From IMG/VR virus record IMGVR_UViG_3300003792_000001: DNA of 60,674 bases; one strand, given 5' to 3'. Numbering within the stretch: the first letter of the stretch is position 1; each line of letters starts with the position of its first letter. Position numbers and translations under genes: made by a program. Positions 6,268-48,426 of the stretch are shown piece after piece. Source of the stretch: a virus. The notes below the pieces were generated by a model. It was not told where the DNA came from and ran no database searches. It saw nothing but the letters and a program-made list of their open reading frames with translations.

Positions 6268-8244
6268 ATGAATCGTGGATATTCGATCCTGACCGTGAAA
6301 GCGGTCGAGGAGGAGCAGCGCATTATCCGGGGTACGGCGACGACGCCGACGCCGGATCGCCTTGGCGATATCGTCGAGCCGCTGGGCGTCAAATTCAAAA
6401 ACCCGATGCCGCTCCTTTGGCAGCACAGGAGCGACAAGCCGGTTGGCACGGTCAAATTCGACAAGCCGACCAAGGACGGAATTACCTTCGAAGCCCGCCT
6501 GCCAAAGATCGACGAGCCGGGCACCTTGAAGGATCGCATCGACGAGGCGTGGCAATCGGTCAAGGCCGGGCTCGTCGCCGCCGTCTCCATCGGCTTTCGC
6601 GCGATGGAATGGTCGTTCATCGAGGCGACCGGCGGCATCCGCTACAGCGAAACCGAGGTCATGGAGCTTTCGCTTGTGACCATCCCGGCTCAGGCCGAGG
6701 CCAGCATTTCCCTAATCAAGTCGATAGACGCCCCTCTGCTCGCCGCGTCAGGCAAGGAGCCGAAGGCACATGATCGACCTGTTGCTCCCGGCGTCACGGG
6801 AAAATCCCAACCCGTAACCACGCGCCTAAAGGACGCTCCGAAAATGAAGACGATTGCCGAACAGATCGCCGCGCTTGAAGCCAAGCGGGCGGCGAATACC
6901 TCCCGCATGGAGGAGGTAATGCAAAAGAGCATGGACGAAGGCCGCTCGACCGATGAGGCCGAACAGGAAGAATTCGACACGCTCGAAACCGAAGTCGATG
7001 CCATCGACAAGGACTTGAAGCGCCTGCGCATCCTCGAAAAGGCCAAGGCCTCGGCAGCAAAGCCGGTGCCGACCGCCACCATCCGCGAGAATGATGGCAC
7101 CCAAGCCCGCGCTGGCGTGATCGTCAAGACCCACGACAGGACCGCTCCAGGCATCCAGTTTGCTCGCATCGTCAAGTGCCTCGGCCTTGCGCAGGGCAAT
7201 CGCCGCGAAGCACTGGAAATGGCGCAGCAGCGCTATCCGAACGACGACGCCGTAATCAACGGCCTCAAGGCGGCGGTCGCGGCAGGCACGGTGGGCCACT
7301 CCACTTGGGCCGGGGCGCTGGTCGGCGACGAAACCACGGCGTTTGCGGATTTCGTGGAATTCCTCCGCCCGCAGACGATCCTCGGCAAGTTCGGCACCAA
7401 CGGCATTCCGTCGCTGCGCAACGTGCCGTTCCGGGCCGCGCTGATCGGCCAGACCTCCGGCGGCAACGCCTACTGGGTCGGCGAAGGCAAGCCCAAGCCG
7501 CTGACGAAGTTCGATTTCAGCCGCACCACGCTTGAGCCGTTGAAGGCCGCCAATATCGCGGTCGTCACCGACGAGGTGCTGCGGGATTCGAGCCCGTCTG
7601 CCGAAACCATCGTCCGCGACAGTCTGGCTGCGGCCCTGCGCGAACGCCTCGATACCGACTTCATCGATCCGGCCAAGGCCGCCTCGGCTGGGGTATCGCC
7701 CGCGTCGATCACCAACGGCGTCTCCGCTATCGCATCCACCGGCAATGATGCCGACGCGATCCGCGAAGATATCCGCCAGCTGTTCGGCGCCTTCATCGCC
7801 GCCAACAACGCGCCGACCTCCGGCGTGTGGATCATGTCGGCGACCACCGCGCTTGCGCTTTCGCAGATGCGCAATCCGCTCGGCCAGAAGGAATTCCCCG
7901 GCGTGACGATGCTGGGCGGTGATTTCGAAGGCCTGCCGGTGATCGTGTCCGAATACCTCTCGCCGGTTTCGGCGGGCGGCTTCGTGGCCCTGGTCAACGC
8001 GCAGGACATCTACCTCGCCGATGACGGTGGCATCCGTATCGACATGAGCCGCGAAGCATCGCTGCAAATGAACGATGCGCCCACCACGCAGGATGCGACG
8101 ACCGGCACCGGCACGTCGCTGGTTTCCCTGTGGCAGACCAACACGGTCGGCTTCCTTGCCGAGCGCACGATCAACTGGGCAAAGCGCCGCGCGTCGGCGG
8201 TGGCCCTGCTGGATGAGGTCAACTGGGGCGTTCCCGGTTCCTGA
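6268..8244 (+). CDS. Fused HK97-family prohead protease and major capsid protein
   Basis: The N-terminal ~165 aa (RIIRGTATTPTPDRLGDIV...LLWQHRSDKPVGTV) look like an S78 protease. A coiled-coil delta-like segment follows (KTIAEQIAALEAKRA...), then an HK97-fold MCP-like C-terminus. A possible internal start lies at ATG 6844. Confidence 0.85.
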   Translation: MNRGYSILTVKAVEEEQRIIRGTATTPTPDRLGDIVEPLGVKFKNPMPLLWQHRSDKPVGTVKFDKPTKDGITFEARLPKIDEPGTLKDRIDEAWQSVKAGLVAAVSIGFRAMEWSFIEATGGIRYSETEVMELSLVTIPAQAEASISLIKSIDAPLLAASGKEPKAHDRPVAPGVTGKSQPVTTRLKDAPKMKTIAEQIAALEAKRAANTSRMEEVMQKSMDEGRSTDEAEQEEFDTLETEVDAIDKDLKRLRILEKAKASAAKPVPTATIRENDGTQARAGVIVKTHDRTAPGIQFARIVKCLGLAQGNRREALEMAQQRYPNDDAVINGLKAAVAAGTVGHSTWAGALVGDETTAFADFVEFLRPQTILGKFGTNGIPSLRNVPFRAALIGQTSGGNAYWVGEGKPKPLTKFDFSRTTLEPLKAANIAVVTDEVLRDSSPSAETIVRDSLAAALRERLDTDFIDPAKAASAGVSPASITNGVSAIASTGNDADAIREDIRQLFGAFIAANNAPTSGVWIMSATTALALSQMRNPLGQKEFPGVTMLGGDFEGLPVIVSEYLSPVSAGGFVALVNAQDIYLADDGGIRIDMSREASLQMNDAPTTQDATTGTGTSLVSLWQTNTVGFLAERTINWAKRRASAVALLDEVNWGVPGS

Positions 8245-8318: not shown

Positions 8319-8639
8319 ATGAGATACCAAGGCTACCTCAATCGCGCGCTCAAATCCTCCGACCCGCGATATCTCCAAATCTTTACCCGCATGGGCTACG
8401 GCGTCGCCGCGCCATCATCCCCGCCATATGTCCCGGCGCCTTTGCCCGATCCGCCGCCGCCGATTGAGGACGACGATGATGATGACGACGAGCCCGGCGG
8501 CCCGCCCGATAACCATGGCCAGCAATTGAAGGCCGCCCGCGAGGAATATGAGCGGGTGACCGGCAAGAAGCCGTTCAACGGCTGGGATGTCGCCGAGCTG
8601 CACAAGCGGATCGCCGATTATAAAAAAGCGAACAAATAG
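8319..8639 (+). CDS. Hypothetical protein with Pro-rich and poly-Asp tract
   Basis: ORF between the capsid and portal genes. Contains PPPPIEDDDDDDDEPGGPP and a C-terminal helical KKPFNGWDVAELHKRIADYKK segment. Confidence 0.55.
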   Translation: MRYQGYLNRALKSSDPRYLQIFTRMGYGVAAPSSPPYVPAPLPDPPPPIEDDDDDDDEPGGPPDNHGQQLKAAREEYERVTGKKPFNGWDVAELHKRIADYKKANK

Positions 8640-8651
8640 AAAGCTGCCGCC

Positions 8652-9998
8652 GTGCGCCTATTGGGGTTTCATGTGCCATTTACCGCCGACCGCCAGAAGG
8701 CGATTTCAGCGGTCACCGAAAACCGCTCCGGCTGGTTTCGGGTCTTTGAGAGCTTCGCGGGCGCATGGCAGCGCAATATCACTGTCGACCGCGATCTCGT
8801 CCTTACCTATCACGCCGTCTATGCGTGCATGACGCTGATTGCCGCCGATATCGCAAAATTGCGCATCAAGCTCGTAGAGCAGGATGAAAACGGCATCTGG
8901 ACAGAGGTCAAGAACCCGGCCTTTTCGCCGGTGCTGCGCAAGCCGAACGACTTTCAGAACCGTATTCAGTTTATGGAAAATTGGGTGCTGTCGAAGCTCA
9001 TTCGGGGCAATACCTATGTCCTGAAAGTGCGCGATAATCGCGGCATCGTCGTAAAGATGTATGTGCTCGATCCGAACCGCGTGACGCCGCTTGTGGCCGA
9101 TACCGGCGAGGTGTTTTACCAACTGATGACCGACAATATGGCGGCGATCCAGCAGGATATCGTCGTCCCGGCGCGCGAGATCATCCACGACCGGATGAAT
9201 TGCCTTTACCACCCGCTGGTCGGCACATCGCCGATTTTGGCGGCGGGCGTCGCGGCTACCCAAGGTATCCGCATCCAGAACAATTCGGCCACGTTCTTCG
9301 GCAATCAAAGCCAGCCGGGCGGCATCCTGATTGCGCCGGGCGCGATCTCCGATGAAACCGCCGCACGCCTCAAAGCCACATGGGAGGCGGGCTATACCGG
9401 CGACAATGCGGGCAAGATCGCGGTTGTCGGCGATGGCCTGGAATACAAGCCTTTGGCGATCACCGCCCATGACAGCCAATTGATCGAACAGCTCCGCTGG
9501 ACCGCCGAAGTGGTTTGCTCGGTCTTTCATGTGCCGCCCTATAAGATCGGCGTCGGCGCCATGCCGACCTACAACAATATCCAGTCCTTGAACGTCGAAT
9601 ATTATTCGCAGTGCTTGCAAAAGCTGATCGAGGACGCCGAGCTTTGCCTCGACGAGGGGCTTGGCACCGGCGAAGGCCGGGGCACCGAATTCGATACCGA
9701 AAATCTGCTGCGCATGGACAGCGTAAGCCAGATGGAAGCGCTGGAAAAGGCGAACGGCAAGATGACGCCGAACGAGCAGCGCAAGAAGCTCGATTTGAAG
9801 CCGGTCGCTGGCGGCGACAGCCCCATGATGCAGCAGCAAAACTTTTCGCTCGCCGCCTTGGCAAAGCGCGACGCGAAATCCGATCCGTTCGCCACGGAAA
9901 AACCCGAACCGGAGGCGGCGCCGGAGCCAGCCAACGACAATGAAGCCGAGATGGAAGCCCGCGCTGCCCTGATCGAAATTTTGAAGGGATTCCGCTGA
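8652..9998 (+). CDS. Portal protein (HK97 family)
   Basis: Size, position and sequence pattern typical of Phage_portal (GNTYVLKVRD..., YHPLVGTSPILAAG, acidic C-terminus). Confidence 0.88.
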   Translation: MRLLGFHVPFTADRQKAISAVTENRSGWFRVFESFAGAWQRNITVDRDLVLTYHAVYACMTLIAADIAKLRIKLVEQDENGIWTEVKNPAFSPVLRKPNDFQNRIQFMENWVLSKLIRGNTYVLKVRDNRGIVVKMYVLDPNRVTPLVADTGEVFYQLMTDNMAAIQQDIVVPAREIIHDRMNCLYHPLVGTSPILAAGVAATQGIRIQNNSATFFGNQSQPGGILIAPGAISDETAARLKATWEAGYTGDNAGKIAVVGDGLEYKPLAITAHDSQLIEQLRWTAEVVCSVFHVPPYKIGVGAMPTYNNIQSLNVEYYSQCLQKLIEDAELCLDEGLGTGEGRGTEFDTENLLRMDSVSQMEALEKANGKMTPNEQRKKLDLKPVAGGDSPMMQQQNFSLAALAKRDAKSDPFATEKPEPEAAPEPANDNEAEMEARAALIEILKGFR

Positions 9999-11158
9999 TG
10001 TTCGACGGTAAGGCATTCGGCGCTGAGATCGTCGGCGTCGTCAAAGATTACCTTGAGCGGCAGCTATCGCCGGTGCTTGACCGCATCGAGGCGTTGGAGA
10101 AGCAGCTGGCGGAATTGCCGACGCCCAAGGACGGCAAGGATGCCGACCCGCTCGTCGTCGCCTCGATGGTGGCGGGCGAGATCAAGGCCGATCTCGCGAA
10201 GATGCGGGAGACGCTCGATGCCATCCAACCCGCGCCGGAATTGCCGGACGTGGCGGGCATGATCGAGCGGGCCGTGGGCGCGATCCCGGCGCCGATCAGC
10301 GCCGACGAAATCAAAGGCATGATTGAGGGCGAACTTGCCGCGCTGCCGCCCGCGCCGGAATTGCCCGACGTCTCCGGCATGATCGAGGCGGCGGTCGCCG
10401 CGATCCCGGCCCCGATCAGCCCGGAAGAAATAAAGGCGCTCGCCGCCGAGGTGATCGATGCCCAGCCCGCGCCGGAGCCGGTGGCGATCAACTATTCACC
10501 ATCGCCGGAGCAAATCCGCGAATGGGCGGGAATGGTGGCCGACGTTATCGAATTGCCGGTGCCGAAGGGCATCACGCTTGAAGACGTCACGCCGATGATC
10601 GAGGAGCGGATCGCCAAGGGCTTCGCCGAATTGCCGGTGCCAAAGGACGGCAAGGACGGCAAGGATGGCGAACCCGGCAAGGATGGCGTGGGCATGGCTG
10701 GCGGCATCATCGACCGCGACGGTCATTTGAATTTCACCATGACGGACGGCACCTTGCGCGACCTCGGCAAGGTCTGCGGCAAGGATGGCGAGCCAGGCAA
10801 GCCGGGCGCCGACGGTTTCGGCTTCGAGGATATGTCCGAGGAATTGGCCGACGACGGGCGCACGCTGATCAAACGCTACATCAAGGGCGAGCGGGTCAAG
10901 GAATTCCGCCACGCCCTGTCTGTGGTGCTTTATCAAGGCATCTGGAAGGAAGGCACCGAATACCAGACCGGCGATAGCGTCACATTCAACGGCTCGCAGT
11001 TCATTGCGCGATGCCCGACGACCGCGAAGCCGGAGACCAGCAAGGATTGGCAGCTTTCCGTCAAGCGTGGCCGCGACGGCAAAGATGGGGTGATGAAGGC
11101 CGAAAAGCCGCGCGGCCCGATCAGCGTCGGGGTGCCCGCTAAAAAGGATGGTCAATAA
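9998..11158 (+). CDS. Repeat-containing collagen-like virion protein with a C-terminal carbohydrate-binding-like motif
   Basis: Carries a tandem 40-aa repeat and short G-X-Y runs (GKDGKDGEPGKDG, GKDGEPGKPGADG). The C-terminus, YQGIWKEGTEYQTGDSVTFNGSQFIA, resembles CBM5/12-like repeats seen in phage fibres. Confidence 0.7.
   Translation: MFDGKAFGAEIVGVVKDYLERQLSPVLDRIEALEKQLAELPTPKDGKDADPLVVASMVAGEIKADLAKMRETLDAIQPAPELPDVAGMIERAVGAIPAPISADEIKGMIEGELAALPPAPELPDVSGMIEAAVAAIPAPISPEEIKALAAEVIDAQPAPEPVAINYSPSPEQIREWAGMVADVIELPVPKGITLEDVTPMIEERIAKGFAELPVPKDGKDGKDGEPGKDGVGMAGGIIDRDGHLNFTMTDGTLRDLGKVCGKDGEPGKPGADGFGFEDMSEELADDGRTLIKRYIKGERVKEFRHALSVVLYQGIWKEGTEYQTGDSVTFNGSQFIARCPTTAKPETSKDWQLSVKRGRDGKDGVMKAEKPRGPISVGVPAKKDGQ
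10229..10480 (+). repeat. Tandem ~120-bp coding repeat (2 full copies plus a partial third)
   Basis: cccgcgccggaattgcc restarts at 10229 and 10349, and partially at 10466. The encoded segment is PAPELPDV.GMIE.AV.AIPAPIS..EIK. Confidence 0.8.
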
Positions 11159-11493
11159 TGGTCGCGCTTGTCACGGTTGAGCGCGTCAAGAGCGCGCTGC
11201 GGATCGATACCGATCAGGACGACGAATTGCTTGAGGCCTACATTCAAGCCGCCTCGGCGGCGGTGATTGCCTACCTCAAAGCGCAGGCCACCGTCTTGCT
11301 CGATCTGGATACCGGCGGCGACATCCCATCCGGCTTTGAGGTGCCGCCATCGATCCAGACGGCGACGATCATCCTCGTCGGCCATTTCTATCGGGAGCCG
11401 GATGGCAACACCGACGAGGCATTCGAGCGGGGATACCTGCCCAAGCCGGTCACCGCTTTGCTCTATCCGTTGCGTGATCCCGCCCTCGCATGA
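11158..11493 (+). CDS. Head-tail connector (gp6-like)
   Basis: VERVKSALRIDTDQDDELLEAYIQAASAAVIAYL is the typical gp6/Phage_connect_1 N-terminus. Confidence 0.8.
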   Translation: MVALVTVERVKSALRIDTDQDDELLEAYIQAASAAVIAYLKAQATVLLDLDTGGDIPSGFEVPPSIQTATIILVGHFYREPDGNTDEAFERGYLPKPVTALLYPLRDPALA

Positions 11494-12110
11494 AGCGGCC
11501 CGACTGGTTTCCTGATTGGCAGGGCGAGACGGTGGTGATCGTCGCCTCCGGGCCATCCGCCAAGGACGCCCCGCTGGAAATGGGGCTGGGCCGCGCGCGG
11601 TTCATGGCAATCAATACCTCATGGCAGCTTTGCCCATGGGCCGACATCCTTTTTGCATGCGACGTCGCATGGTGGAACAGCGCCCATGGATGCCCTGAAT
11701 TCGAAGGCATGAAGATTACCATCGATAAGAACGCCGCCCGCAAATATCAGGACATCCGCCTGGTCGAATGCCGCAAGGCCGACGACCGGCTCGTCCTGAA
11801 ACCGCACGGCACGGTCGGCTGGGGCGGCAATAGCGGCTTCCATTGCATCAATCTGGCGGTCCAGTTCGGATGCGCGAAAATCCTGCTGGTCGGCTACGAC
11901 ATGACGGTAGATCACGGCTTGCACTGGCATGGCGCGCACCCGGCGAACATGAACAATCCGAAGGCGGGCAATGTCGCGCGGTGGCGCCGGGCGGTCGATG
12001 CGGCGGCCAAGGTGATCGAGCCGCTCGGTATCCGGGTGATCAATTGCTCGGAGGTCTCGCGGCTGGAAAATTATCCGAAAATGTCGTTCGAGGAGGCAAT
12101 CCTCGGATGA
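11490..12110 (+). CDS. DUF115/Maf-like putative glycosyltransferase
   Basis: ETVVIVASGPSAKD and GGNSGFHCINLAVQFGCAKILLVGYDM match the DUF115 (MptE-like/motility-accessory-factor) pattern as I recall it. ATGA coupling on both sides. Confidence 0.5.
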   Translation: MKRPDWFPDWQGETVVIVASGPSAKDAPLEMGLGRARFMAINTSWQLCPWADILFACDVAWWNSAHGCPEFEGMKITIDKNAARKYQDIRLVECRKADDRLVLKPHGTVGWGGNSGFHCINLAVQFGCAKILLVGYDMTVDHGLHWHGAHPANMNNPKAGNVARWRRAVDAAAKVIEPLGIRVINCSEVSRLENYPKMSFEEAILG

Positions 12111-12709
12111 GCAAGGTGGTCGCCTGCGTCCTTCGATCCGGCGGCGAATATGGGCCGCAGCATGTCACCCGCTTGCGCGATCAGGTCGCCAGGCATTTGC
12201 CAGGCGTGCCATTTCATTGCCTGTCCGATATCGATGTGCCCGGCGTCCATACGATCCCGCTGCGTCACGATTGGCCGGGCTGGTGGGCAAAGATGGAGCT
12301 TTTCGACCCGGCGCATTCCGCCGACTGGCTTTATCTCGATCTCGACAGCGCGATTGTCGGCAGCTTGGCGGTTCTGGCCGCCATCAGGGCCCCGGCGATC
12401 ATGCGCGATATCTACCGCCCCGCCGGGTGGCAAAGCAGCGTCATGTCTATCCCGCAGGCGATCAAGGCGCCGATCTGGAACGCTTTCACGGCGGCGCCCG
12501 AAAAGCATATGCGCGAATTCGCGCTGGGCGGCGATCAAGCCTTCATCGAGGCGCACGGCGCCGACGCTGGATGGCGGTTGTGGCAGGAAATCTGCCCCGG
12601 TCAATTGTGCTCATACAAGGCCGATGTGCGGCGCCTTGGGATAGTCCCCGCCGGGACAAGCGTGGTGGTATTCCACGGCAAGCCCCGGCCATGGCAGGTA
12701 GGGTGGTAA
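12107..12709 (+). CDS. Putative nucleotide-sugar glycosyltransferase (DxD)
   Basis: WLYLDLDSAIVG is a DxD-type motif in a GT-A-like context. The start at ATG 12107 overlaps the upstream stop. Confidence 0.5.
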   Translation: MSKVVACVLRSGGEYGPQHVTRLRDQVARHLPGVPFHCLSDIDVPGVHTIPLRHDWPGWWAKMELFDPAHSADWLYLDLDSAIVGSLAVLAAIRAPAIMRDIYRPAGWQSSVMSIPQAIKAPIWNAFTAAPEKHMREFALGGDQAFIEAHGADAGWRLWQEICPGQLCSYKADVRRLGIVPAGTSVVVFHGKPRPWQVGW

Positions 12710-12901
12710 ATGGAAATCGAAGATATCCGGCGGATTGAATTCAGGCCGGGCGACCGGCTCGTCTTGCGCGTGGCCGGGCGCATCTCCATGGATGCGTGCG
12801 CGCACATCAAAGCCACCATGGAGGGGTTTGCGCCGGGCGTGCCGGTGCTGATCCTTGATGATGGCATGTCGCTGGATGTGCTTTCGGAGGTCGCCGAATG
12901 A
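12710..12901 (+). CDS. Hypothetical protein (63 aa)
   Basis: Tightly packed ORF between the glycosyltransferase and methyltransferase genes. Confidence 0.5.
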   Translation: MEIEDIRRIEFRPGDRLVLRVAGRISMDACAHIKATMEGFAPGVPVLILDDGMSLDVLSEVAE

Positions 12902-13464
12902 GCAAGCCGTTCGAACAGCGCGGAAAGGCAATCATCCGGCGCCTGCCGCCGAACGCGCGGGTGGCCGAGGTCGGCGTGCTGGTTGGCGCTTTGTCCGAAT
13001 ATCTGCTGCGGCAGCGAAAGGACATCACGCTTTATATGGTCGATAGCTGGCAAACGGCTGACAAGCAGCCGGATCATTACCGCGCGACCGGCGACGCCCA
13101 CGCCAACCATTTCGATCCGGCCCGCGTAAAGCGCCATCGCGCCGAGGCCGAGAACCGCGCCCGGCACTTTCCCGGTCGCGCCCGCATCATGGCGATGACG
13201 TCAATTGAGGCCGCCGCGCAATTCCCCGACGCCGCGCTCGATCACGTCTTCGTCGATGCCGATCACAGCTATATCGGCGTCAAAAGCGATCTGAAAGCGT
13301 GGCTTCCAAAGATCAGGCCGGGCGGCTGGATCGGCGGCCACGATTACAACAACCCGGACCCGGCGTTCAAATTCGAGGTCGCCAGGGCCGTGGATGAATG
13401 GGCCGAGGCGACCGGGCGCAAGATTGAGACCGACGCCAATTTTACGTGGTTCGCGAGGGTCTAA
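12898..13464 (+). CDS. Class I SAM-dependent methyltransferase (Methyltransf_24/TylF-like)
   Basis: VAEVGVLVGALSEYL (motif I), FVDADHSY and PGGWIGGHDY are typical of this O-methyltransferase-like family. Confidence 0.65.
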   Translation: MSKPFEQRGKAIIRRLPPNARVAEVGVLVGALSEYLLRQRKDITLYMVDSWQTADKQPDHYRATGDAHANHFDPARVKRHRAEAENRARHFPGRARIMAMTSIEAAAQFPDAALDHVFVDADHSYIGVKSDLKAWLPKIRPGGWIGGHDYNNPDPAFKFEVARAVDEWAEATGRKIETDANFTWFARV

Positions 13465-13844
13465 TGGCAAAGCGCAGCGCCGGGCAGCTTTACGAATATG
13501 TCGCCTTCGACGAGCGGCAAGCGGCAAGCGACGGCTATGGCAACAATACCGGCGGGTTCGCCCAAGTGATCGCCTGCCGCGCCGGATTTACCTATCTCCG
13601 GGGCTCTGAGGCGGTGATCGCATCCCGGCTTGAAGGCAAGCAGCCAATCGTCGTCCGGGTCCGGGCGACGCCGGAGACGCGGCAGATCGAGCCTGATTGG
13701 CGGATGCGGAATTTGCGAAAAGGCACGTGGGCCGACAGTGACGAGACGGAATGGACCGGGCCGATCTATGCGGTGCGATCCACCGCCGAATCGGAGGACC
13801 GCGCGTGGATCGACGTCATGGTCGAAGGCGGCGTAGCGGCATAA
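13464..13844 (+). CDS. Head-tail adaptor (head closure) protein
   Basis: Position and sequence pattern (YVAFDERQ...GGF..V...RAGFTYLRGSEAV) are typical of Phage_H_T_join. TAATG coupling. Confidence 0.7.
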   Translation: MAKRSAGQLYEYVAFDERQAASDGYGNNTGGFAQVIACRAGFTYLRGSEAVIASRLEGKQPIVVRVRATPETRQIEPDWRMRNLRKGTWADSDETEWTGPIYAVRSTAESEDRAWIDVMVEGGVAA

Positions 13845-31726: not shown

Positions 31727-31757
31727 TAAAAATTAAATGGTGATTAAATGGATTTCA
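31727..31757. repeat. attP arm-type repeat, right copy (aaaaattaaatggtgattaaatggatttcag)
   Basis: Near-identical direct repeat of 31507..31541, on the other side of the tRNA-like core. Confidence 0.8.
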
Positions 31758-31802
31758 GCGGAGTTGACTCCGTTGGCCTTGATTTCCAGGAGGGGAACCC
31801 AC

Positions 31803-33017
31803 ATGCCGCGACTGACAGAACCCCGCGTATTGCGCGAAACGCTCCCGCCCAAGGGAAAATTGAAGTGGCTGCGTTGCTCTGAGGTTAAGGGTTTTTGCGC
31901 TTGCATCACCCCGAACGGTGCCCGCACATGGTATGTGCTGGTGCGCGAAAAAACTGGCAAGCAAAAGCCATACAGCCTCGGCCCGGTCGGCGTCTTGCCA
32001 TTCGAGGGCCCGCCGGAAGAACCCGGCGCGCGGGACTTGGCCTTGGCGGCGCTGAACGCCGCCCGGCGCGGCGATGACGTGGCGCTGGCGATCAACCTCA
32101 AAAAGGAGCCCGCCGGGCTCACCCTCAATGAAATCTGGAAGGCGCACAAAGAGGCTGGCTTTCCCAAGGTTCGCGGCACAGGCCGCAAGGGGCCCCGCAC
32201 GATCAAAGCCGACTCGGATCGATGGGCTTTGTATGTGGAGAAGGAATTCGGCAAGAAGCCGGTCTCCGAAATCGATAACGCGGCGGTCCTTCGCTGGCTT
32301 GATAAGATCGCCAAGAAGGGTCAGCGGGCGCAATGCCTGACGCTGGTCAAATCGATGCTTTCCTTTGCGGCAAAGCGCGGGCTGGCGACCGTCCACGAAA
32401 TTTCCGAAAAGCCATCCAAGCCGAATAAGATCAACAATTATTATACCGACGCGCAGCTTGCGGCCATCGATCTTACCGCAACGGAGATGGGCGCCGAGAG
32501 CGAGGATCGGCTTCCATATTTCGCCGCTGTCCGGCTTTTGCTTCACACCGGCGCGCGCTCGGAGGAAATTCGCGCCGCCCGCTGGTCTCAGATCAGGGGC
32601 AACGTGCTGATCCGTGATCACCACAAAGGCGGCGAGGATACGAAGGAAATCCTGCTCACCGACGAGGCTGTGGAAATCATCAAGGGATTGCCCCGCCTGC
32701 GCGGGTGCCCTTGGCTGTTCCCCGCCGAGTCCAAGGCCGGGCACATCATGAATATCGAGTCGGCTTGGGATGATGTGTGCAAGCGGGCAGGGGTGCCGCG
32801 CTACCGTCCGCATGATTTGCGGCATTCCTTCGCGTCGGCTTTCATCAGGGCAGGGGGATCGCTGGCGGCTTTGCAAAAGCTGATGGGCCACGCTGATATC
32901 CAGACGACGATGCGCTACGTGCATGTGGAGCAAGAAACCCAACGCCTCCATTTGAACCGGATGGCCGAGGCAAGGCGCGCGGCGCTAAAGCCAGCGGGAT
33001 CGGAAAAGGCCGCGTGA
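31803..33017 (+). CDS. int: Tyrosine integrase
   Basis: C-terminal HDLRHSFASAFIRAGGSLAALQKLMGHADIQTTMRYVHV (R..H.R..Y catalytic pattern). SD AGGAGG lies upstream of ATG 31803. Confidence 0.9.
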   Translation: MPRLTEPRVLRETLPPKGKLKWLRCSEVKGFCACITPNGARTWYVLVREKTGKQKPYSLGPVGVLPFEGPPEEPGARDLALAALNAARRGDDVALAINLKKEPAGLTLNEIWKAHKEAGFPKVRGTGRKGPRTIKADSDRWALYVEKEFGKKPVSEIDNAAVLRWLDKIAKKGQRAQCLTLVKSMLSFAAKRGLATVHEISEKPSKPNKINNYYTDAQLAAIDLTATEMGAESEDRLPYFAAVRLLLHTGARSEEIRAARWSQIRGNVLIRDHHKGGEDTKEILLTDEAVEIIKGLPRLRGCPWLFPAESKAGHIMNIESAWDDVCKRAGVPRYRPHDLRHSFASAFIRAGGSLAALQKLMGHADIQTTMRYVHVEQETQRLHLNRMAEARRAALKPAGSEKAA

Positions 33018-41581: not shown

Positions 41582-41989
41582 ATGACACTGACCAACGATC
41601 ATATCGCCATCATCAAAGGCATGCTCCTGCGCGGCGATGACATCCACCATGTCGCGGCGCTCTTTGGCGAAAACGCCGGGCGCGTATCCGAGGTAAAAGC
41701 GGGCATTCCAGAATTTGCCGGGCCGCCCAAGCGCGGGAACGGCAAGCGCGTATTGCGGGGCGCGGAAGTGGCGCCTGCGCCGCCGGAGCGATTGCCGCCG
41801 CCGGGGCCATATTTTCTCAATCTGATTGCCGAGCGGGACATCGTACTTGATGGCCTGGAATCCGTCGAGGAGGCGGTCGCCTACTACGTCGATGCCTATA
41901 AGGGCGAAGCGGCGCGGGACATGCAGCGCCGCTATCACAACGCGCTCGCCGAGCGGAAACGCGAACTTTACAAAGGCAGGCTGAGATAA
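41582..41989 (+). CDS. Hypothetical protein (135 aa)
   Basis: ORF with the start set at MTLTNDH. Confidence 0.5.
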   Translation: MTLTNDHIAIIKGMLLRGDDIHHVAALFGENAGRVSEVKAGIPEFAGPPKRGNGKRVLRGAEVAPAPPERLPPPGPYFLNLIAERDIVLDGLESVEEAVAYYVDAYKGEAARDMQRRYHNALAERKRELYKGRLR

Positions 41990-43011
41990 TGACGACGGCT
42001 GATCTGGTCAAATACGATGCGGCCTGCCGCGCCATCGCCGAAGCCAAAAGCATCGATGAGGTCAAGGAAATCCGCGACGTCGCGATTGCGATGAAGGCCT
42101 ATGCCCGGCAAGCACAGAACAAGACGTTGGAGGCCGACGCCGCCGAAATTCGGATGCGGGCGACCAGGCGGCTTGATCAGATGCGGCAGGCGCAGAAGGA
42201 AACTGTCGGACTGGCGAAAGGCGGCCAGCCATATCAGGCTACCGGGTTATTAAAAAACCCAGTAGCACCCACGCTGGCCGAGGCCGGGATCAGCAAGAAC
42301 CTCGCCAATGAGGGGCGCAAGCTCGGCGCCTTGAGCGACGCCGAATTCGAGGTCGCGGTGGCGGAAACCCGCAAGGCCGTCACCAGCGCCACGAAAAATG
42401 TCATCAACAAAATGACCAAGGCGAGCGACCGGGCCGACCGCGAGGCCGCCCTTGGCGAAAAGATACGGGCATCCAAGGATCAGCTCGGACGCGCGGTGAA
42501 AACCTATGGCGTCATCCTCGCTGATCCGCCGTGGCAATTTGAGCCTTATAGCCGCGACACCGGCATGGACCGGGCGGCTGACAACCACTATCCGACGTCG
42601 CCCGTCAGCGAATTGTCCGACCTCAAGCCGCCGAGCGCGAATGATGCGGTGCTGTTCATGTGGGCGACCGTCCCGATGCTACCCGACGCGCTGGAACTGA
42701 TGGAGGCGTGGGGCTTCACTTATCGCTCGCACGTGATCTGGACCAAGGATCGATTGGGCACCGGCTATTGGGCGCGCAATAAGCACGAACTTCTGCTGAT
42801 CGGCACACAAGGGAACGTTCCGGCCCCGGCGCCGGGCCATCAGCCGGAGTCGGTGATCCTCGCCTCGCTTGGGCGCCATTCGGAAAAGCCGGAGGTGTTT
42901 TATGAAATCATCGAGACGATGTTTCCGAGCTTGCCGAAGTTGGAAATGTTCGCGCGTTCGGGGCGCCCTGGCTGGGATCATTGGGGCGCCGAAGCGCCGG
43001 AGGCCGCGTGA
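41989..43011 (+). CDS. MT-A70-family N6-adenine DNA methyltransferase
   Basis: VILADPPWQFEPYSRDTGMDRAADNHYPT (DPPW motif) plus a conserved C-terminal half (HSEKPEVFYEIIE). Confidence 0.85.
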   Translation: MTTADLVKYDAACRAIAEAKSIDEVKEIRDVAIAMKAYARQAQNKTLEADAAEIRMRATRRLDQMRQAQKETVGLAKGGQPYQATGLLKNPVAPTLAEAGISKNLANEGRKLGALSDAEFEVAVAETRKAVTSATKNVINKMTKASDRADREAALGEKIRASKDQLGRAVKTYGVILADPPWQFEPYSRDTGMDRAADNHYPTSPVSELSDLKPPSANDAVLFMWATVPMLPDALELMEAWGFTYRSHVIWTKDRLGTGYWARNKHELLLIGTQGNVPAPAPGHQPESVILASLGRHSEKPEVFYEIIETMFPSLPKLEMFARSGRPGWDHWGAEAPEAA

Positions 43012-45094: not shown

Positions 45095-45388
45095 ATGATT
45101 ATCAAGCCCACCCTCATCGCCTTTTGCCTGTTGAGCCCCAGCGCTATCGCCCATGAGGCGCCCAGCGGCTGGTCCTATCCATTCAATTGTTGCAGCAATC
45201 AGGATTGCCGGGAGGTCGCCGACGTGCCGGAAATGGCGGACGGCTACCACGCCAGCAATGGCGAGACGATCCCCTATAGCGACCCGCGTATCAAGGAAAG
45301 CCCGGACGGCAAATTCCACCTTTGCACCGTCGCCGGGCAAGCGCAAAGCCGCGCCCTTTGCCTGTTTGTCCCGCCAAGGAGCTTTTAA
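45095..45388 (+). CDS. Secreted Cys-rich small protein
   Basis: Signal peptide MIIKPTLIAFCLLSPSAIAHE, then WSYPFNCCSNQDCREV...HLCTV...ALCLF. Confidence 0.6.
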   Translation: MIIKPTLIAFCLLSPSAIAHEAPSGWSYPFNCCSNQDCREVADVPEMADGYHASNGETIPYSDPRIKESPDGKFHLCTVAGQAQSRALCLFVPPRSF

Positions 45389-45390
45389 AA

Positions 45391-46182
45391 ATGACGGTCA
45401 AGCTGCGGGTCATATCGCTCGGTGCAGGCGTCCAGTCGACCACAATGGCGCTGATGGCTGCGCATGGCGAAATCGGGCCCATGCCTGATTGCGCGATATT
45501 CGCCGATACCGGGTGGGAGCCAAAGGCGGTCTATCAGCACCTTGAATGGCTGCGCTCGCCCAATGTGCTGCCGTTCCCGGTGCATATCGTCAGCAAGGGC
45601 GATCTCAGGGCCGACTCGCTGGCGCGCCGCAATACGGACGGCAAGCGGCACGCCTCGGTGCCATGGTTCCTGCGGATGCCGAACGGCGCCGAGGGCATGG
45701 GGCGGCGGCAATGCACGAATGAATACAAGCTCAAGCCGATCACCCGGCAGATCAAGGAATTGCTCGGCGGGCGGCCCAAGGGCGGCGCCGAGGTCTGGAT
45801 CGGTATCTCCACCGACGAGGCGATGCGGGTAAAGCCCGCCCGCGTTCAATATATGATCAATCGCCACCCGCTGATCGAAATGCGGATGAACCGCCTCGAT
45901 TGCCTCGCGTGGCTGGATCGGCACGGCTACCCGATGCCGCCGAAATCCTCCTGCATCGGATGCCCCTATCATAGCGCCGCGCATTGGCGCGCCATGGGCG
46001 CCGACGAACTTGCCGATGCCATCGAGGTAGACGAGGCGATCCGCAATCAGGCGGGCATGAAGGGGCAGCAATTCATGCACCGCTCGCGCCGCCCGCTGAG
46101 CGAGGTCGATCTGTCCACGGACGAGGATCGCGGCCAATTGAACCTCTTCATCAATGAATGTGAGGGGATGTGCGGCGTATGA
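45391..46182 (+). CDS. PAPS reductase-family (PP-loop) protein
   Basis: VISLGAGVQSTTMALMAAHGEI...CAIFADTGWEP and C-terminal SCIGCPYHS are typical of phage PAPS-reductase-like proteins. Confidence 0.75.
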   Translation: MTVKLRVISLGAGVQSTTMALMAAHGEIGPMPDCAIFADTGWEPKAVYQHLEWLRSPNVLPFPVHIVSKGDLRADSLARRNTDGKRHASVPWFLRMPNGAEGMGRRQCTNEYKLKPITRQIKELLGGRPKGGAEVWIGISTDEAMRVKPARVQYMINRHPLIEMRMNRLDCLAWLDRHGYPMPPKSSCIGCPYHSAAHWRAMGADELADAIEVDEAIRNQAGMKGQQFMHRSRRPLSEVDLSTDEDRGQLNLFINECEGMCGV

Positions 46183-46745
46183 CGAAGGCGGCGCTCAAGT
46201 GGATCAAATTCTATCCGGCCAATTGGCTCGGCGATCCCGGCTTGCGCACGTGCAGCGCCGCCGCGCGCGGTCTGTGGATCGATATGCTTTGCTTGATGGT
46301 CAATGCCAGCCCCTACGGCCACCTCAAGCTGGGCCGCAAAAAGATTGACGTGCCGACGCTCGCCGGGCTGACCAACATCCCGCCTGGCCGGGTCGAAAAG
46401 CTGCTCGCCGAATTGCAGAAAGCGGCGGTTTTCAGCGTCACAAATCACGGCGTGATCTATTCGCGCAGAATGGTTCGGGAGTCCAAGTGGAGGGAAAATG
46501 GAGAAAAAGCGGCGAAAGCCAGATGGTCGCAACCCACTGAAACAGAAGGAGGAATTCAAAAGCGCAATGCGGGGTCTAATGCTAAAGAGTATAAGAGTAA
46601 TAGAATCCAAAAATCTTTACCCCCTGAGCCCGGAGTCGCGCGCGCAAGGCCGGGAGCGAAAGAGCCCACCGATTACAGCAACGAACCAGTCGAACCGACA
46701 GAGGCGCTGATCCGATCACGCCTTGTCAGGAAATACACGCACTGA
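46179..46745 (+). CDS. DUF1376 (YdaU-like) protein
   Basis: WIKFYPANWLGDPGLRTCSAAARGLWIDMLCLM matches the DUF1376 pattern. ATGA coupling. Confidence 0.7.
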   Translation: MTKAALKWIKFYPANWLGDPGLRTCSAAARGLWIDMLCLMVNASPYGHLKLGRKKIDVPTLAGLTNIPPGRVEKLLAELQKAAVFSVTNHGVIYSRRMVRESKWRENGEKAAKARWSQPTETEGGIQKRNAGSNAKEYKSNRIQKSLPPEPGVARARPGAKEPTDYSNEPVEPTEALIRSRLVRKYTH

Positions 46746-46765
46746 AACCGAACAGGAGAAAAATC

Positions 46766-47056
46766 ATGGCTACCACCGAATTGCAGCACACGAGCCTCAA
46801 GCTGATCACCGAACAGGGCCCGGCCCGGACGCGGCTTGAGCGGACGCTCCGCGAAGCCCAAGCGCTGTCCAAGGCGCTCGGCGAACTGTCCATGGCGCTG
46901 ACAGGCGGCAAGTACCAGGAGCCCGCCTCATCGCGATCAGCGGGGCTGAGAAGCCCGGACGGCCTATTGCCGCAGATGGACGCCACCGCCCGCGACATCG
47001 AGACGGAAATCGCCAACATGCGCCAGCTGATCGACCACATCCGGCGCTTGATCTGA
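46766..47056 (+). CDS. Hypothetical protein (96 aa)
   Basis: ORF in the operon. Confidence 0.5.
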   Translation: MATTELQHTSLKLITEQGPARTRLERTLREAQALSKALGELSMALTGGKYQEPASSRSAGLRSPDGLLPQMDATARDIETEIANMRQLIDHIRRLI

Positions 47057-47065
47057 GGCCAGCCC

Positions 47066-47281
47066 ATGCCCGAATTTTTCGACGATCACGACGCCCTCAA
47101 GTTGCTCAAGAGCCACGGCTATCGGGAAACCGCGAACGGCGTCTTGCGCGGGGATTGGCGGGCCATGAACGAGGGATGCCGCGCTGCGGTGCGGTATCTC
47201 TGCGACGAGTGGGATTTTGTTTTTATCCAAGAACCGAAAGGCCAACCCAATGACGACGAGACGCATCAACGAAACAATTGA
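47066..47281 (+). CDS. Hypothetical protein (71 aa)
   Basis: ORF in the operon. Confidence 0.45.
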   Translation: MPEFFDDHDALKLLKSHGYRETANGVLRGDWRAMNEGCRAAVRYLCDEWDFVFIQEPKGQPNDDETHQRNN

Positions 47282-47447
47282 GTTCGTGAAACAATCTATC
47301 ATCGACAACGACCCGCCGATTACAACGCGGGCTGCCCATGAGAAGTTTTTGAATGGATTGCGGGCAGTCGAATCGGAGGCCGCCGCATATCTTGCTGGGG
47401 TCCGGGAATGCATAGCACTCGCCGAACAGGCCATGGTGGAGGATTGA
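47250..47447 (+). CDS. Hypothetical protein (65 aa)
   Basis: The start is set at MTTRRINE. Overlaps the previous ORF, so the boundaries are uncertain. Confidence 0.4.
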   Translation: MTTRRINETIEFVKQSIIDNDPPITTRAAHEKFLNGLRAVESEAAAYLAGVRECIALAEQAMVED

Positions 47448-47452
47448 GACCG

Positions 47453-47743
47453 ATGCACACGAAGGATTTTCTCGCCGGAGAGCTGGAAAAAGCCGGATTG
47501 CCGGCGATGGCCGAAAAGGCTCGGAAAGGCCTCTACCACGATTATCTGTCCCCGCTGGATTTCCCCGAAATGGAACTCGACCGCGATCTGGTCGAAGCGA
47601 TCAAAGCGGGCAACGAAGCGGCGGCGGCCTTGCGGGCGCGGCACCACGAAGGCGAATTCGACGCCTCCATGGAGGAAAGCGACGAGTGGGCCCAAAGCCC
47701 CGAAGGGCGGGCGGCATTGGGCGGATTGCTGGGCAAAAAATGA
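47453..47743 (+). CDS. Hypothetical protein (96 aa)
   Basis: ORF ATGA-coupled to the DpdA-like gene. Confidence 0.5.
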   Translation: MHTKDFLAGELEKAGLPAMAEKARKGLYHDYLSPLDFPEMELDRDLVEAIKAGNEAAAALRARHHEGEFDASMEESDEWAQSPEGRAALGGLLGKK

Positions 47744-48426
47744 TCCACTATCACGGCACACCGCTGACACCGCGCTCGGAACTCCTGAAAATGGCGGGGA
47801 AGCATTTTTGCGTATCCTTTGCCGCGCCGCAGGATGCCGACTGGTGCATGGCCCACGGACAATCGGTCATGTGGGATAGCGGCGCTTTCAGCTCATTCAC
47901 GAAGGGCGATGCCGTCGACTGGGAAAAATACTTCACGTGGCTTCGGGCGCGCTTGGCGCACCCGCATTGGGCGGTGATCCCCGACGCTATCGGCGGCGAC
48001 GTCGATGAGCAAAGGGCGCTCGTCGCCCGATGGCCATTCTCGCGGCGCTTGGGCGCCCCGGTATGGCATATGGCCCTGCCTATCGACTACTTGCTTGAGC
48101 TTGCCGGGGAATGGCCGCGCGTTTGCTTCGGCAGTTCGGCGCAATACTGGCAAGTGGGCTCGGATGCATGGTGCCGCCGATGCGACGAGGCATTCAATGC
48201 GCTTGCCCAGCGCGGCCTTTCGGATTGCTGGATTCACATGCTGCGGGGCTTGGTCCTCGCCGGAGACAAATGGCCCTTTGCATCGGGCGACAGCACCAAC
48301 GTCGCCCAAAATTTCGAACGAAACCGCATATGCCCGGAGCGAATGGCGCGGCGCCTGGACGCCGTGCAATGCCCGCTTTTCTGGACGCCGCGCCCGCAAC
48401 AGAAGGATATGTTCAATGTGGCTTAA
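47740..48426 (+). CDS. dpdA: DpdA-like DNA (7-deazaguanine) transglycosylase candidate
   Basis: VMWDSGAFSSF (compare the MDSGAF motif of DpdA/TGT), IHMLRGL (HGFG-like position) and ASGDSTNVAQN (compare the DSMAW position). Followed by a YhhQ-like transporter gene. Confidence 0.55.
   Translation: MIHYHGTPLTPRSELLKMAGKHFCVSFAAPQDADWCMAHGQSVMWDSGAFSSFTKGDAVDWEKYFTWLRARLAHPHWAVIPDAIGGDVDEQRALVARWPFSRRLGAPVWHMALPIDYLLELAGEWPRVCFGSSAQYWQVGSDAWCRRCDEAFNALAQRGLSDCWIHMLRGLVLAGDKWPFASGDSTNVAQNFERNRICPERMARRLDAVQCPLFWTPRPQQKDMFNVA

Follow-up and report, generated by a model that had tools for sequence, protein, structure and literature searches.

Organization of the cassette

The window analysed here is the whole of IMG/VR record IMGVR_UViG_3300003792_000001, a stretch of 60,674 nucleotides (nt) that represents the ~60.7-kb genome of a temperate siphophage with Alphaproteobacteria as its host group. 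Four open reading frames, ORF A to ORF D, are located between the genes of the gp6-like head-tail connector and of the head completion protein (Table 1). They form a cassette predicted to encode a CstII/Maf-like transferase, a glycosyltransferase (GT) of the GT8 type, a small protein and an S-adenosylmethionine (SAM) methyltransferase, and this cassette is a candidate for decorating the particle of the phage with glycan. A nucleotide search of the region against known phages gave a single 77-nt match, hence the phage has no close cultured relative.

The four genes lie on the + strand and are tightly coupled. Start and stop codons overlap as ATGA at the connector/A, A/B and C/D junctions and as TAATG at the junction of ORF D with the head completion gene; at the B/C junction the stop abuts the start (TAAATG). 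No sigma-70-like promoter was found on the + strand between positions 5500 and 16500, and no terminator-like site of that strand in the cassette or adjoining it, the only two weak ones being placed upstream, at 9181 and 10712. An earlier note on this DNA had described four coupled ORFs flanked by a gp6-like connector gene and by the genes of a head-tail adaptor and a gp10-like protein, and had proposed that they are co-expressed with the virion genes. The ORF coordinates and overlapping codons, together with the matches of the flanking proteins to Phage_connect_1, Phage_HCP and HK97-gp10_like, bear out the layout, and the same overlaps and the lack of + strand promoter-like and terminator-like sites support the co-expression.

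The G+C content at third codon positions of the cassette ORFs (0.77-0.79) is like that of the neighbouring genes. In the comparison with the closest relative, locus L084, the ratio of nonsynonymous to synonymous substitution rates is 0.09 for ORF A, 0.16 for ORF B, 0.16 for ORF C and 0.09 for ORF D, and 0.14 and 0.09 for the flanking structural genes. Because both measures resemble those of the neighbours, all four ORFs, the 63-aa one included, are real genes on which purifying selection acts. The four proteins are free of membrane segments; the lone hydrophobic stretch above the usual threshold lies within the folded GT-A core of ORF B.

Table 1. Features of the window, starting with the cassette and its flanks (positions are those of the window)
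Feature	Coordinates	Strand	Remarks
ORF A	11490-12110	+	206 aa
ORF B	12107-12709	+	200 aa; start is the ATG at 12107, not the TTG upstream
ORF C	12710-12901	+	63 aa
ORF D	12898-13464	+	188 aa
gp6-like head-tail connector	11158-11493	+	upstream flank; Pfam Phage_connect_1, E 4e-12
Head completion/closure gene	13464-13844	+	downstream flank; Pfam Phage_HCP, E 1e-9
Genes 3' of head completion			65-aa ORF, HK97-gp10_like, Tail_completion_gp17, tail tube, tail assembly chaperone; also tape measure
Candidate acceptor (speculative)	8071-8118	+	NDAPTTQDATTGTGTS, a Thr-rich loop formed by residues 602-617 of the capsid fusion, close to its C-terminus
386-aa repeat protein	9998-11158	+	between portal and connector genes
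Portal gene	8652-9998		structural arm
106-aa protein	8319-8639	+	between capsid and portal genes; PHROG 29995, function unassigned
Protease-capsid fusion	6268-8244		prohead-protease/HK97-capsid
Large terminase	start 4548		structural arm
Integrase	31737-33017		further on than the structural arm, as are RecT/exonuclease genes
Early region			several DNA methyltransferases
Early-region DNA-modification genes	45322-48426	+	also 142-1796, 41989-43011 and 43789-44502

Proteins encoded by the cassette

ORF A matches PHROG 4603, labelled 'alpha-2,3-sialyltransferase' (E 1e-52). Its AlphaFold2 (AF2) model, computed with 52 homologues, is a single domain with a predicted local distance difference test score (pLDDT) of 97.3, in which a CstII-like Rossmann-type fold is present. 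The only PDB matches found by Foldseek with E < 1e-3 were those of Campylobacter jejuni CstII, of family GT42 (1ro7/1ro8; E 3.5e-5, probability 1.0, template-modelling (TM) score 0.53-0.55), followed by human ST8SiaIII (GT29) and the Pasteurella multocida sialyltransferase. The fold neighbours in BFVD are viral proteins annotated as MptE-like, DUF115 or GT29. The corresponding Pfam profile, PF01973 (MptE-like/DUF115), gives ORF A 22.7 bits over residues 109-139 only, the curated cut-off being 34.6 bits; other members of the family reach 66.4 (P0345), 43.6 (P0264) and 41.5 bits (P0384), and about a third of the close homologues carry a precomputed match. The earlier description of ORF A as a DUF115/Maf-like putative glycosyltransferase is therefore sustained by the CstII fold and by the MptE-like/DUF115 fold neighbours, but not by the Pfam score.

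Residues G21, P22, N42, D58, G135, D137, H145, W146, H147 and H150 are invariant in the ORF A family. By eye, H145/H147/H150 and the ASGPSA and NSG...GYD motifs resemble the catalytic His188 and the regions of CstII that bind cytidine monophosphate (CMP); likewise by eye, the N-terminal nucleotide-binding motif G-x-G-P-S, the (T/N)SG...G(I/Y)D motif and an H-aromatic-x-G-x-H stretch look alike in the two proteins. CstII, the best match among solved structures, differs from ORF A in that it has no significant sequence similarity to it, is about 50 residues longer, contains a lid region of which most is apparently absent from ORF A, and acts on lipooligosaccharide. The central domain of the Maf proteins (pfam01973) also resembles CstII, and in Maf this catalytic domain is flanked by N- and C-terminal domains (PMC11339370). 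ORF A shares with the Magnetospirillum magneticum Maf, known from its structure, and with the Clostridium botulinum Maf (CbMaf) the CstII-like fold, the NSG...G-D motif matched by the Pfam MptE-like profile and a cytoplasmic, soluble nature; it differs from them in consisting of a single domain instead of three, in its Pfam score and in its acceptor, which would be a virion protein and not flagellin. On the evidence of the model, ORF A can be described as a member of the CstII/Maf fold superfamily that retains the catalytic core only, strict GT42 or Maf membership not being claimed, and as a putative minimal CstII/Maf-like (GT42/DUF115-fold) CMP-ulosonic-acid transferase.

ORF B matches PHROG 1962 ('glycosyltransferase', E 6e-51), and the pLDDT of its AF2 model is 97.0. 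Foldseek retrieved glycogenin (3qvb; E 9.5e-9, TM 0.70), Streptococcus pneumoniae GlyE, Dictyostelium Skp1 AgtA and LgtC, and the profile of its homologues matched GT8 structure 6mw5 (E 1.4e-5) and glycogenin (about 2e-3) among PDB sequences. The invariant D78/D80, D143/Q144 and H190 align to the DxD, the GGDQ and the C-terminal His metal ligand of glycogenin and AgtA. These fold, profile and motif matches confirm what had been called a DxD glycosyltransferase. With glycogenin, GlyE and AgtA it shares the GT-A fold and the three motifs, but it is shorter (200 aa) and no Pfam family, Glyco_transf_8 included, was matched at E <= 0.1; moreover, GT8 also comprises LgtC, an enzyme of lipopolysaccharide (LPS) synthesis, so that the fold leaves the class of acceptor unfixed. 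ORF B is a GT8-type GT-A glycosyltransferase, by analogy of a retaining family, and its donor is probably a uridine diphosphate (UDP)-hexose.

The methyltransferase, ORF D, matches Pfam Methyltransf_24 with E 3.8e-17 (63.5 bits, the cut-off being 26.3 bits). D120, D122, H123, H148 and D149 are invariant in its family, and its profile gave weak matches in the PDB to cation-dependent O-methyltransferases and to the methyltransferase-domain entry 6g7d. TylF was not matched in Pfam at E <= 0.1, and of the name TylF/Methyltransf_24-like given to the protein in the earlier note only the second half can be kept. ORF D also matches PHROG 2675, whose label is 'DNA methyltransferase'; the DNA-methylase motifs (D/N/S)PP(Y/F/W/H), which cover DPPY and NPPY, and PCQ are absent from it and from every other protein of the cassette. 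Judged from its family match and motifs, ORF D is a class I SAM methyltransferase with motifs like those of the cation-dependent O-methyltransferases, and no DNA methylase. The Methyltransf_24 class I enzymes include sugar O-methyltransferases, and a sugar is the probable substrate of ORF D. PAJU2 gp12, considered as a homologue of ORF D, was rejected, as it shows no similarity and belongs to another methyltransferase family.

For ORF C no match was found in Pfam, PHROG or NCBIfam, and NCBIfam gave nothing useful for the other cassette ORFs or the 386-aa protein. Homologues of ORF C are present in L004/L084 (87%), L049/L163 (67%), L014, L176 and L177, and elsewhere in the head module in L088, L109, L118 and L123. 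In three of the latter the gene stands 5' of the portal gene (L088 4632-4811, L118 7669-7848, L123 452-631), and in L192 it is found between the connector gene and ORF A. ORF C is thus a conserved, optional member of the cassette, mobile within the head module, and it may not belong functionally to the sugar enzymes. PAJU2 gp05 was rejected as an ORF C homologue since no similarity was detected.

Distribution of the ORF A family and its partners

The ORF A family comprises 6562 cluster representatives at E <= 1e-3 and 4356 at E <= 1e-10, each standing for a cluster at 50% identity. It occurs in 72 annotated phage records, in which the bacterial hosts, where named, are all Proteobacteria. Among the carriers are P1 (pmgO), PAJU2 (gp10), Caulobacter and Klebsiella jumbo phages, XacN1 and the mis-attributed 'Tetraselmis viridis virus S20'. 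When IMG/VR loci were recruited with ORF A, the gene was located in the head/neck module, 3' of portal, capsid or connector genes, in 80 out of 80, and those with downstream sequence had it 5' of head-completion, gp10 or tail-tube genes. This placement spans at least two unrelated types of head module and three insertion points; in some loci ORF A directly follows the capsid gene, and 5-6 kb of cargo precede the portal gene. Phage structural neighbours also surround 36 of the 46 ORF A loci in bacterial genomes, almost all of them from Alphaproteobacteria, and the genome scan detected no ORF A homologues in cellular glycan loci.

The frequency of the cassette was assessed among 36 distinct complete head-neck loci for which the portal gene was the only recruiting criterion. 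ORF A is present in eight of them and the cassette is absent from the remaining 28; in at least nine of these 28 the head completion gene follows the connector gene after 20-28 nt. The cassette does interrupt a canonical gene order, as had been noted before. Its presence in 8/36 loci and its varied insertion points, taken with the uniform placement in the 80 loci, indicate a mobile accessory insertion that nevertheless always resides inside the head/neck operon. The connector/head-completion junction itself seems to be a hot spot for cargo: L144 (11648-14958) and L092 (11509-14194) carry there a different insertion of ~3 kb, devoid of ORF A, that encodes a 486-493-aa protein with no Pfam match, a weakly Methyltransf_24-like protein and a 188-196-aa protein.

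Every related cassette contains ORF A, and no other gene is common to them all. Its partner transferases are of the GT2, GT8-like, GT9 and GT-D types, and the partner methyltransferases belong to TylF (L076), CmcI/rhamnosyl-O-methyltransferase, FkbM and Methyltransf_3/23/24. Among these partners neither a flippase nor a polymerase nor any other membrane protein was seen. The cassettes of Paracoccus-type prophages hold no enzyme other than ORF A; consequently, it must be able to act on a pre-existing acceptor. A natural fusion, P0277, joins an A domain to Methyltransf_24 and ties A and D to one product; tandem A domains occur as well, and the S20 record holds a larger cassette with two A-like genes, GT2, GT-D and a methyltransferase. 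The variability of the partner genes suggests that the glycan is under diversifying pressure. A sulfotransferase (Sulfotransfer_3) or hexapeptide-repeat acyltransferases adjoin ORF A in L036 (8915-9556), L009 (6621-7130) and L022 (7175-7684), which implies that the glycans of some phages are sulfated or acylated, and heptose is suggested by the GT9 heptosyltransferase-like genes of L076 and L093. In the closest relatives with a longer cassette, L088 (8025-12220) and L090 (12456-16749), the neighbours of ORF A encode an HAD protein resembling phosphomannomutase, a cytidylyltransferase-like nucleotidyltransferase of 138 aa and an FkbM methyltransferase, and some phages may accordingly make their own activated sugar. 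Nonulosonic-acid synthase genes were not found in the related cassettes, where the phosphomannomutase-like and cytidylyltransferase-like genes of L088 were the only sugar-synthesis genes seen.

Relatives of these genes are carried by P1 and PAJU2. In P1, pmgO is the homologue of ORF A (28% identity), pmgP encodes a second DUF115-like protein and pmgQ is the homologue of ORF B (35%); unlike the window cassette, pmgO-pmgP-pmgQ lie outside the head/neck operon. The genome of PAJU2 is laid out in the same way as that of the window phage, and its neck region contains the ORF A homologue gp10 (33%), an unassigned gene and, two genes downstream, a methyltransferase; its cassette, however, follows the head-closure gene and not the connector gene, and its methyltransferase is of the Methyltransf_23 family.

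A proposal for glycosylation of the particle

Taking into account that: (i) the cassette and its relatives encode a glycan tool-kit; (ii) no membrane, flippase or polymerase component accompanies them; (iii) they are expressed with the virion proteins, and (iv) they are retained only in head/neck operons, cytoplasmic O-glycosylation of a particle protein is the simplest reading. On balance we consider it probable that the cassette constitutes a glycosylation module of accessory nature, produced along with the proteins of the head and neck, which O-glycosylates one or more proteins of its own particle with a methylated glycan. In the model, modification would take place in the cytoplasm, during or before assembly. 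ORF A would act as the catalytic core of Maf does, moving a CMP-activated ulosonic acid directly onto exposed Ser/Thr residues. ORF B, with Mn2+ held by the DxD and His190, would transfer a hexose from a UDP-sugar in a configuration-retaining reaction, and ORF D would O-methylate a hydroxyl group of a sugar, a step that might cap the glycan. The benefit would be a variable glycan coat contributing to stability, masking or altered surface interactions, with no requirement in assembly.

The sugar transferred by ORF A would come from the host, either as CMP-3-deoxy-D-manno-octulosonate (CMP-Kdo) or, where available, as CMP-pseudaminic or CMP-legionaminic acid. No sugar-biosynthesis gene was recognised among the ORFs scanned elsewhere in the window, which would make the donor host-derived. 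P1-type carriers grow on E. coli K-12, a strain that to our knowledge makes no sialic-acid-like sugar; given also the lack of phage sugar genes, CMP-Kdo is a plausible donor. As far as we know, it is made by every Gram-negative host. The chemistry has a precedent in Maf, which links CMP-activated pseudaminic acid, legionaminic acid, N-acetylneuraminic acid (Neu5Ac) or Kdo straight to Ser/Thr on the surface of a protein destined for self-assembly, CbMaf using CMP-Neu5Ac or CMP-Kdo in E. coli for that O-glycosylation (PMC11339370). The more specific proposal, that P1 PmgO, PAJU2 gp10 and ORF A represent an uncharacterised minimal Maf/CstII-like family attaching Kdo or another ulosonic acid from the host CMP-sugar pool to Ser/Thr of capsid or neck proteins, is put forward tentatively, as a possibility we regard as less probable than particle glycosylation in general.

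Several observations agree with glycosylation of the particle. The best structure matches of ORF B include the protein-directed GT8 enzymes glycogenin, GlyE and Skp1 AgtA; the combination of glycosyltransferases with an O-methyltransferase, associated with structural genes, fits the composition of the mycobacteriophage cassettes; and at least two glycoproteins are present in the virion of XacN1, a phage with a homologue of ORF A. All that is recorded for P1 pmgO, pmgP and pmgQ is that they are 'putative morphogenetic' genes and non-essential, and their dispensability fits an accessory decoration. As to the acceptor, the Thr-rich loop of the capsid fusion, which immediately precedes the conserved VS[LM][WF]Q motif, is a weak candidate. 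The 30 residues in front of this motif contain a mean of 8.3 Ser/Thr in the 22 ORF A-positive phages and of 5.75 in the 12 ORF A-negative ones, a difference with a Mann-Whitney p of 1.8e-4 when phylogeny is ignored. An ORF A-specific C-terminal extension of the capsid or tail-tube protein, as in the mycobacteriophages, was looked for and none was seen.

A number of points weigh against this proposal. At the level of sequence, neither the single-sequence search nor the 52-homologue profile search of ORF A against PDB sequences (E <= 10) gave a meaningful match, and hhalign paired ORF A with CstII only over N114-D141 and T131-N158, 28 columns around the NSG...G-D motif, at 5% probability (the CstII query was validated against 2wqq/1ro7); hence GT42 membership cannot be claimed from sequence. 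The DUF115 score below the cut-off and the absence of the N- and C-terminal domains of Maf also count against the proposal. The association of the Thr-rich loop with ORF A takes no account of phylogeny and has a counter-example in L091, and the capsid and tail-tube C-termini of ORF A-positive and ORF A-negative phages show no clear signature. The nature of the glycan, its donor and its acceptor are inferred wholly from synteny, cassette composition and analogy. Finally, three points hint at other roles: LPS biosynthesis, too, typically involves GT8, GT9 and CMP-sugar enzymes, the category assigned to ORF B by PHROG is 'moron / host takeover', and the GenBank record of PAJU2 labels its ORF A homologue as a 'structural protein'.

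Alternative functions

The first of those roles would be remodelling of host envelope glycans, such as the LPS core or O-antigen, the capsule, or glycosylated flagellin or pilin, instead of phage proteins. Such a function might be exerted late in infection, against re-adsorption of the progeny to debris or as a block to superinfection, or through leaky expression in the lysogen. Its attraction is that LgtC-like GT8 enzymes, GT9 heptosyltransferase-like proteins and CMP-sugar transferases are classic LPS enzymes, that Maf enzymes act on flagellin, that the phage, having an integrase, is temperate, and that the category given to PHROG 1962 suits it. The cassette nonetheless lacks the traits of a serotype-conversion module, which are a membrane transferase or flippase and expression independent of the late operon: none of its four proteins has a transmembrane segment, there is no flippase or Gtr-type partner, and the genes, with no promoter or terminator of their own, are translationally coupled within the late operon. 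A host-directed moron would also have no reason to stay in the head/neck position, which is kept in all 80 viral loci in spite of several insertion points, and the ORF A homologues of bacterial genomes were visibly in prophage structural modules in 36 of 46 cases and were not encountered by the genome scan in cellular glycan loci. Taken together, these properties make remodelling of the host an unlikely function, although it is the main alternative.

A second alternative is that proteins of the ORF A type are themselves components of the particle or bound to it, with a structural role or one exerted after injection. The gene is always found among structural genes, and ORF010 of PAJU2 (L164, AP009624; 7780-8349) is one of only three early ORFs of that record labelled as 'structural protein', the others being the capsid fusion and the major tail protein; Klebsiella phage Eowyn bears the same label. 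The Eowyn label, however, was perhaps copied by homology. If the PAJU2 label came from analysis of virion proteins, the transferase may be particle-associated, but binding of an enzyme to the virion protein that it modifies could lead to its co-purification with particles, which is compatible with glycosylation of the particle. Since the family-invariant residues fall in motifs of the nucleotide-binding and catalytic type (GPS, NSG...G-D, HWHG-H), pointing to an active enzyme, and since most phages with the same head module do without the gene and P1 pmgO is dispensable, we hold a structural role to be improbable.

Hypermodification of the phage DNA, by base glycosylation and methylation around packaging, is the best-known role of phage glycosyltransferases and methyltransferases and would accord with the expression of neck genes during packaging and with the label of PHROG 2675, but it is very improbable here, as ORF D matches O-methyltransferase-type families and has neither DPPY/NPPY nor PCQ, no hydroxymethylase, TET or base-exchange gene adjoins the cassette, true DNA methyltransferases and a DpdA-like gene are located elsewhere, in the early region, and the partners found in relatives (rhamnosyl-O-methyltransferase/CmcI, TylF, sulfotransferase, hexapeptide acyltransferase, GT9) fit glycan chemistry.

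Comparison with the mycobacteriophage cassettes

Virion glycosylation has so far been shown experimentally mainly in mycobacteriophages. The Corndog-type cassette lies within the structural operon, a location that the papers cited below do not state. The window cassette resembles those of Che8 and of the cluster O, Corndog-type phages in its gene content, with glycosyltransferases and an O-methyltransferase, and in its accessory, non-essential character, and it too is placed in a structural operon; the Che8-type genes, on the contrary, are near the genome end. According to PMC11600133, PMC11256854 and PMC12619734, which cite Freeman 2023, glycosyltransferases and an O-methyltransferase of mycobacteriophages glycosylate the capsid and the tail tube and alter antibody recognition; in cluster O, as described in PMC11600133, three glycosyltransferase genes are located 3' of the O-methyltransferase gene, and capsid and tail tube are modified.

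The differences are that the host of the window phage is Gram-negative (Alphaproteobacteria), that the constant enzyme has a CstII/Maf fold, pointing to a CMP-ulosonic-acid donor, and that the present system is known from its genes alone. Relative to the mycobacteriophages, the novelty lies in the Gram-negative host range, in the CstII/Maf-like constant enzyme and in the size and phage-specificity of the ORF A family. The earlier note had judged that a Maf-type enzyme acting on virion proteins would be unusual. This judgement has to be qualified on two counts, namely the known mycobacteriophage cassettes and the abundance of the ORF A family, with its 6562 clusters, in phages of Proteobacteria. 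The literature searches found no study of the ORF A family or of DUF115-like genes in phage structural operons.

Were glycosylation of the particle confirmed, virion glycosylation would extend to phages of Proteobacteria with a different chemistry, based on a CMP-ulosonic acid and a Maf-like transferase, and the long-unexplained pmgO, pmgP and pmgQ of P1 would acquire a function. If, in addition, the ORF A family attached ulosonic acids in the manner tentatively put forward above, many phages of Gram-negative bacteria, classical laboratory ones included, would bear an unnoticed glycan coat, acidic and with variable extension and methylation. A soluble and compact enzyme for the O-glycosylation of a self-assembling protein, working with donors present in E. 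coli, would also be of interest for glyco-engineering and for the pharmacology of phage therapy.

Flanking genes and early region

The early region contains three genes of the DNA methyltransferase type, one of them fused or adjacent to a ParB-like nuclease domain, together with the DpdA-like gene (PHROG 887, queuine tRNA-ribosyltransferase) and a gene resembling 3'-phosphoadenosine 5'-phosphosulfate (PAPS) reductase (PHROG 424). This assortment suggests DNA modifications of the 7-deazaguanine and methyl types.

Between the portal and connector genes, the 386-aa protein combines tandem Pro/Ala-rich repeats of about 35 aa (PAPELPDV.GMIE.AV.AIPAPIS..EIK) with short G-x-y runs of the collagen kind and a C-terminal domain resembling CBM_5_12. 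Its match in PHROG is family 1289, whose label, 'portal protein', is probably wrong. The protein has a homologue in PAJU2 gp07 and may serve as a fibre or decoration protein of the head. All phages that share this head module have conserved it, whether they carry the cassette or not, so it was dismissed as a partner co-varying specifically with ORF A. In the 106-aa protein encoded between the capsid and portal genes, seven consecutive Asp come after a Pro-rich stretch (PPPPIEDDDDDDDEPGGPP). The order terminase-capsid-portal of the structural arm is inverted with respect to the usual portal-protease-capsid order, and the same arrangement is found in the PAJU2-type (Detrevirus) phages of Pseudomonas.

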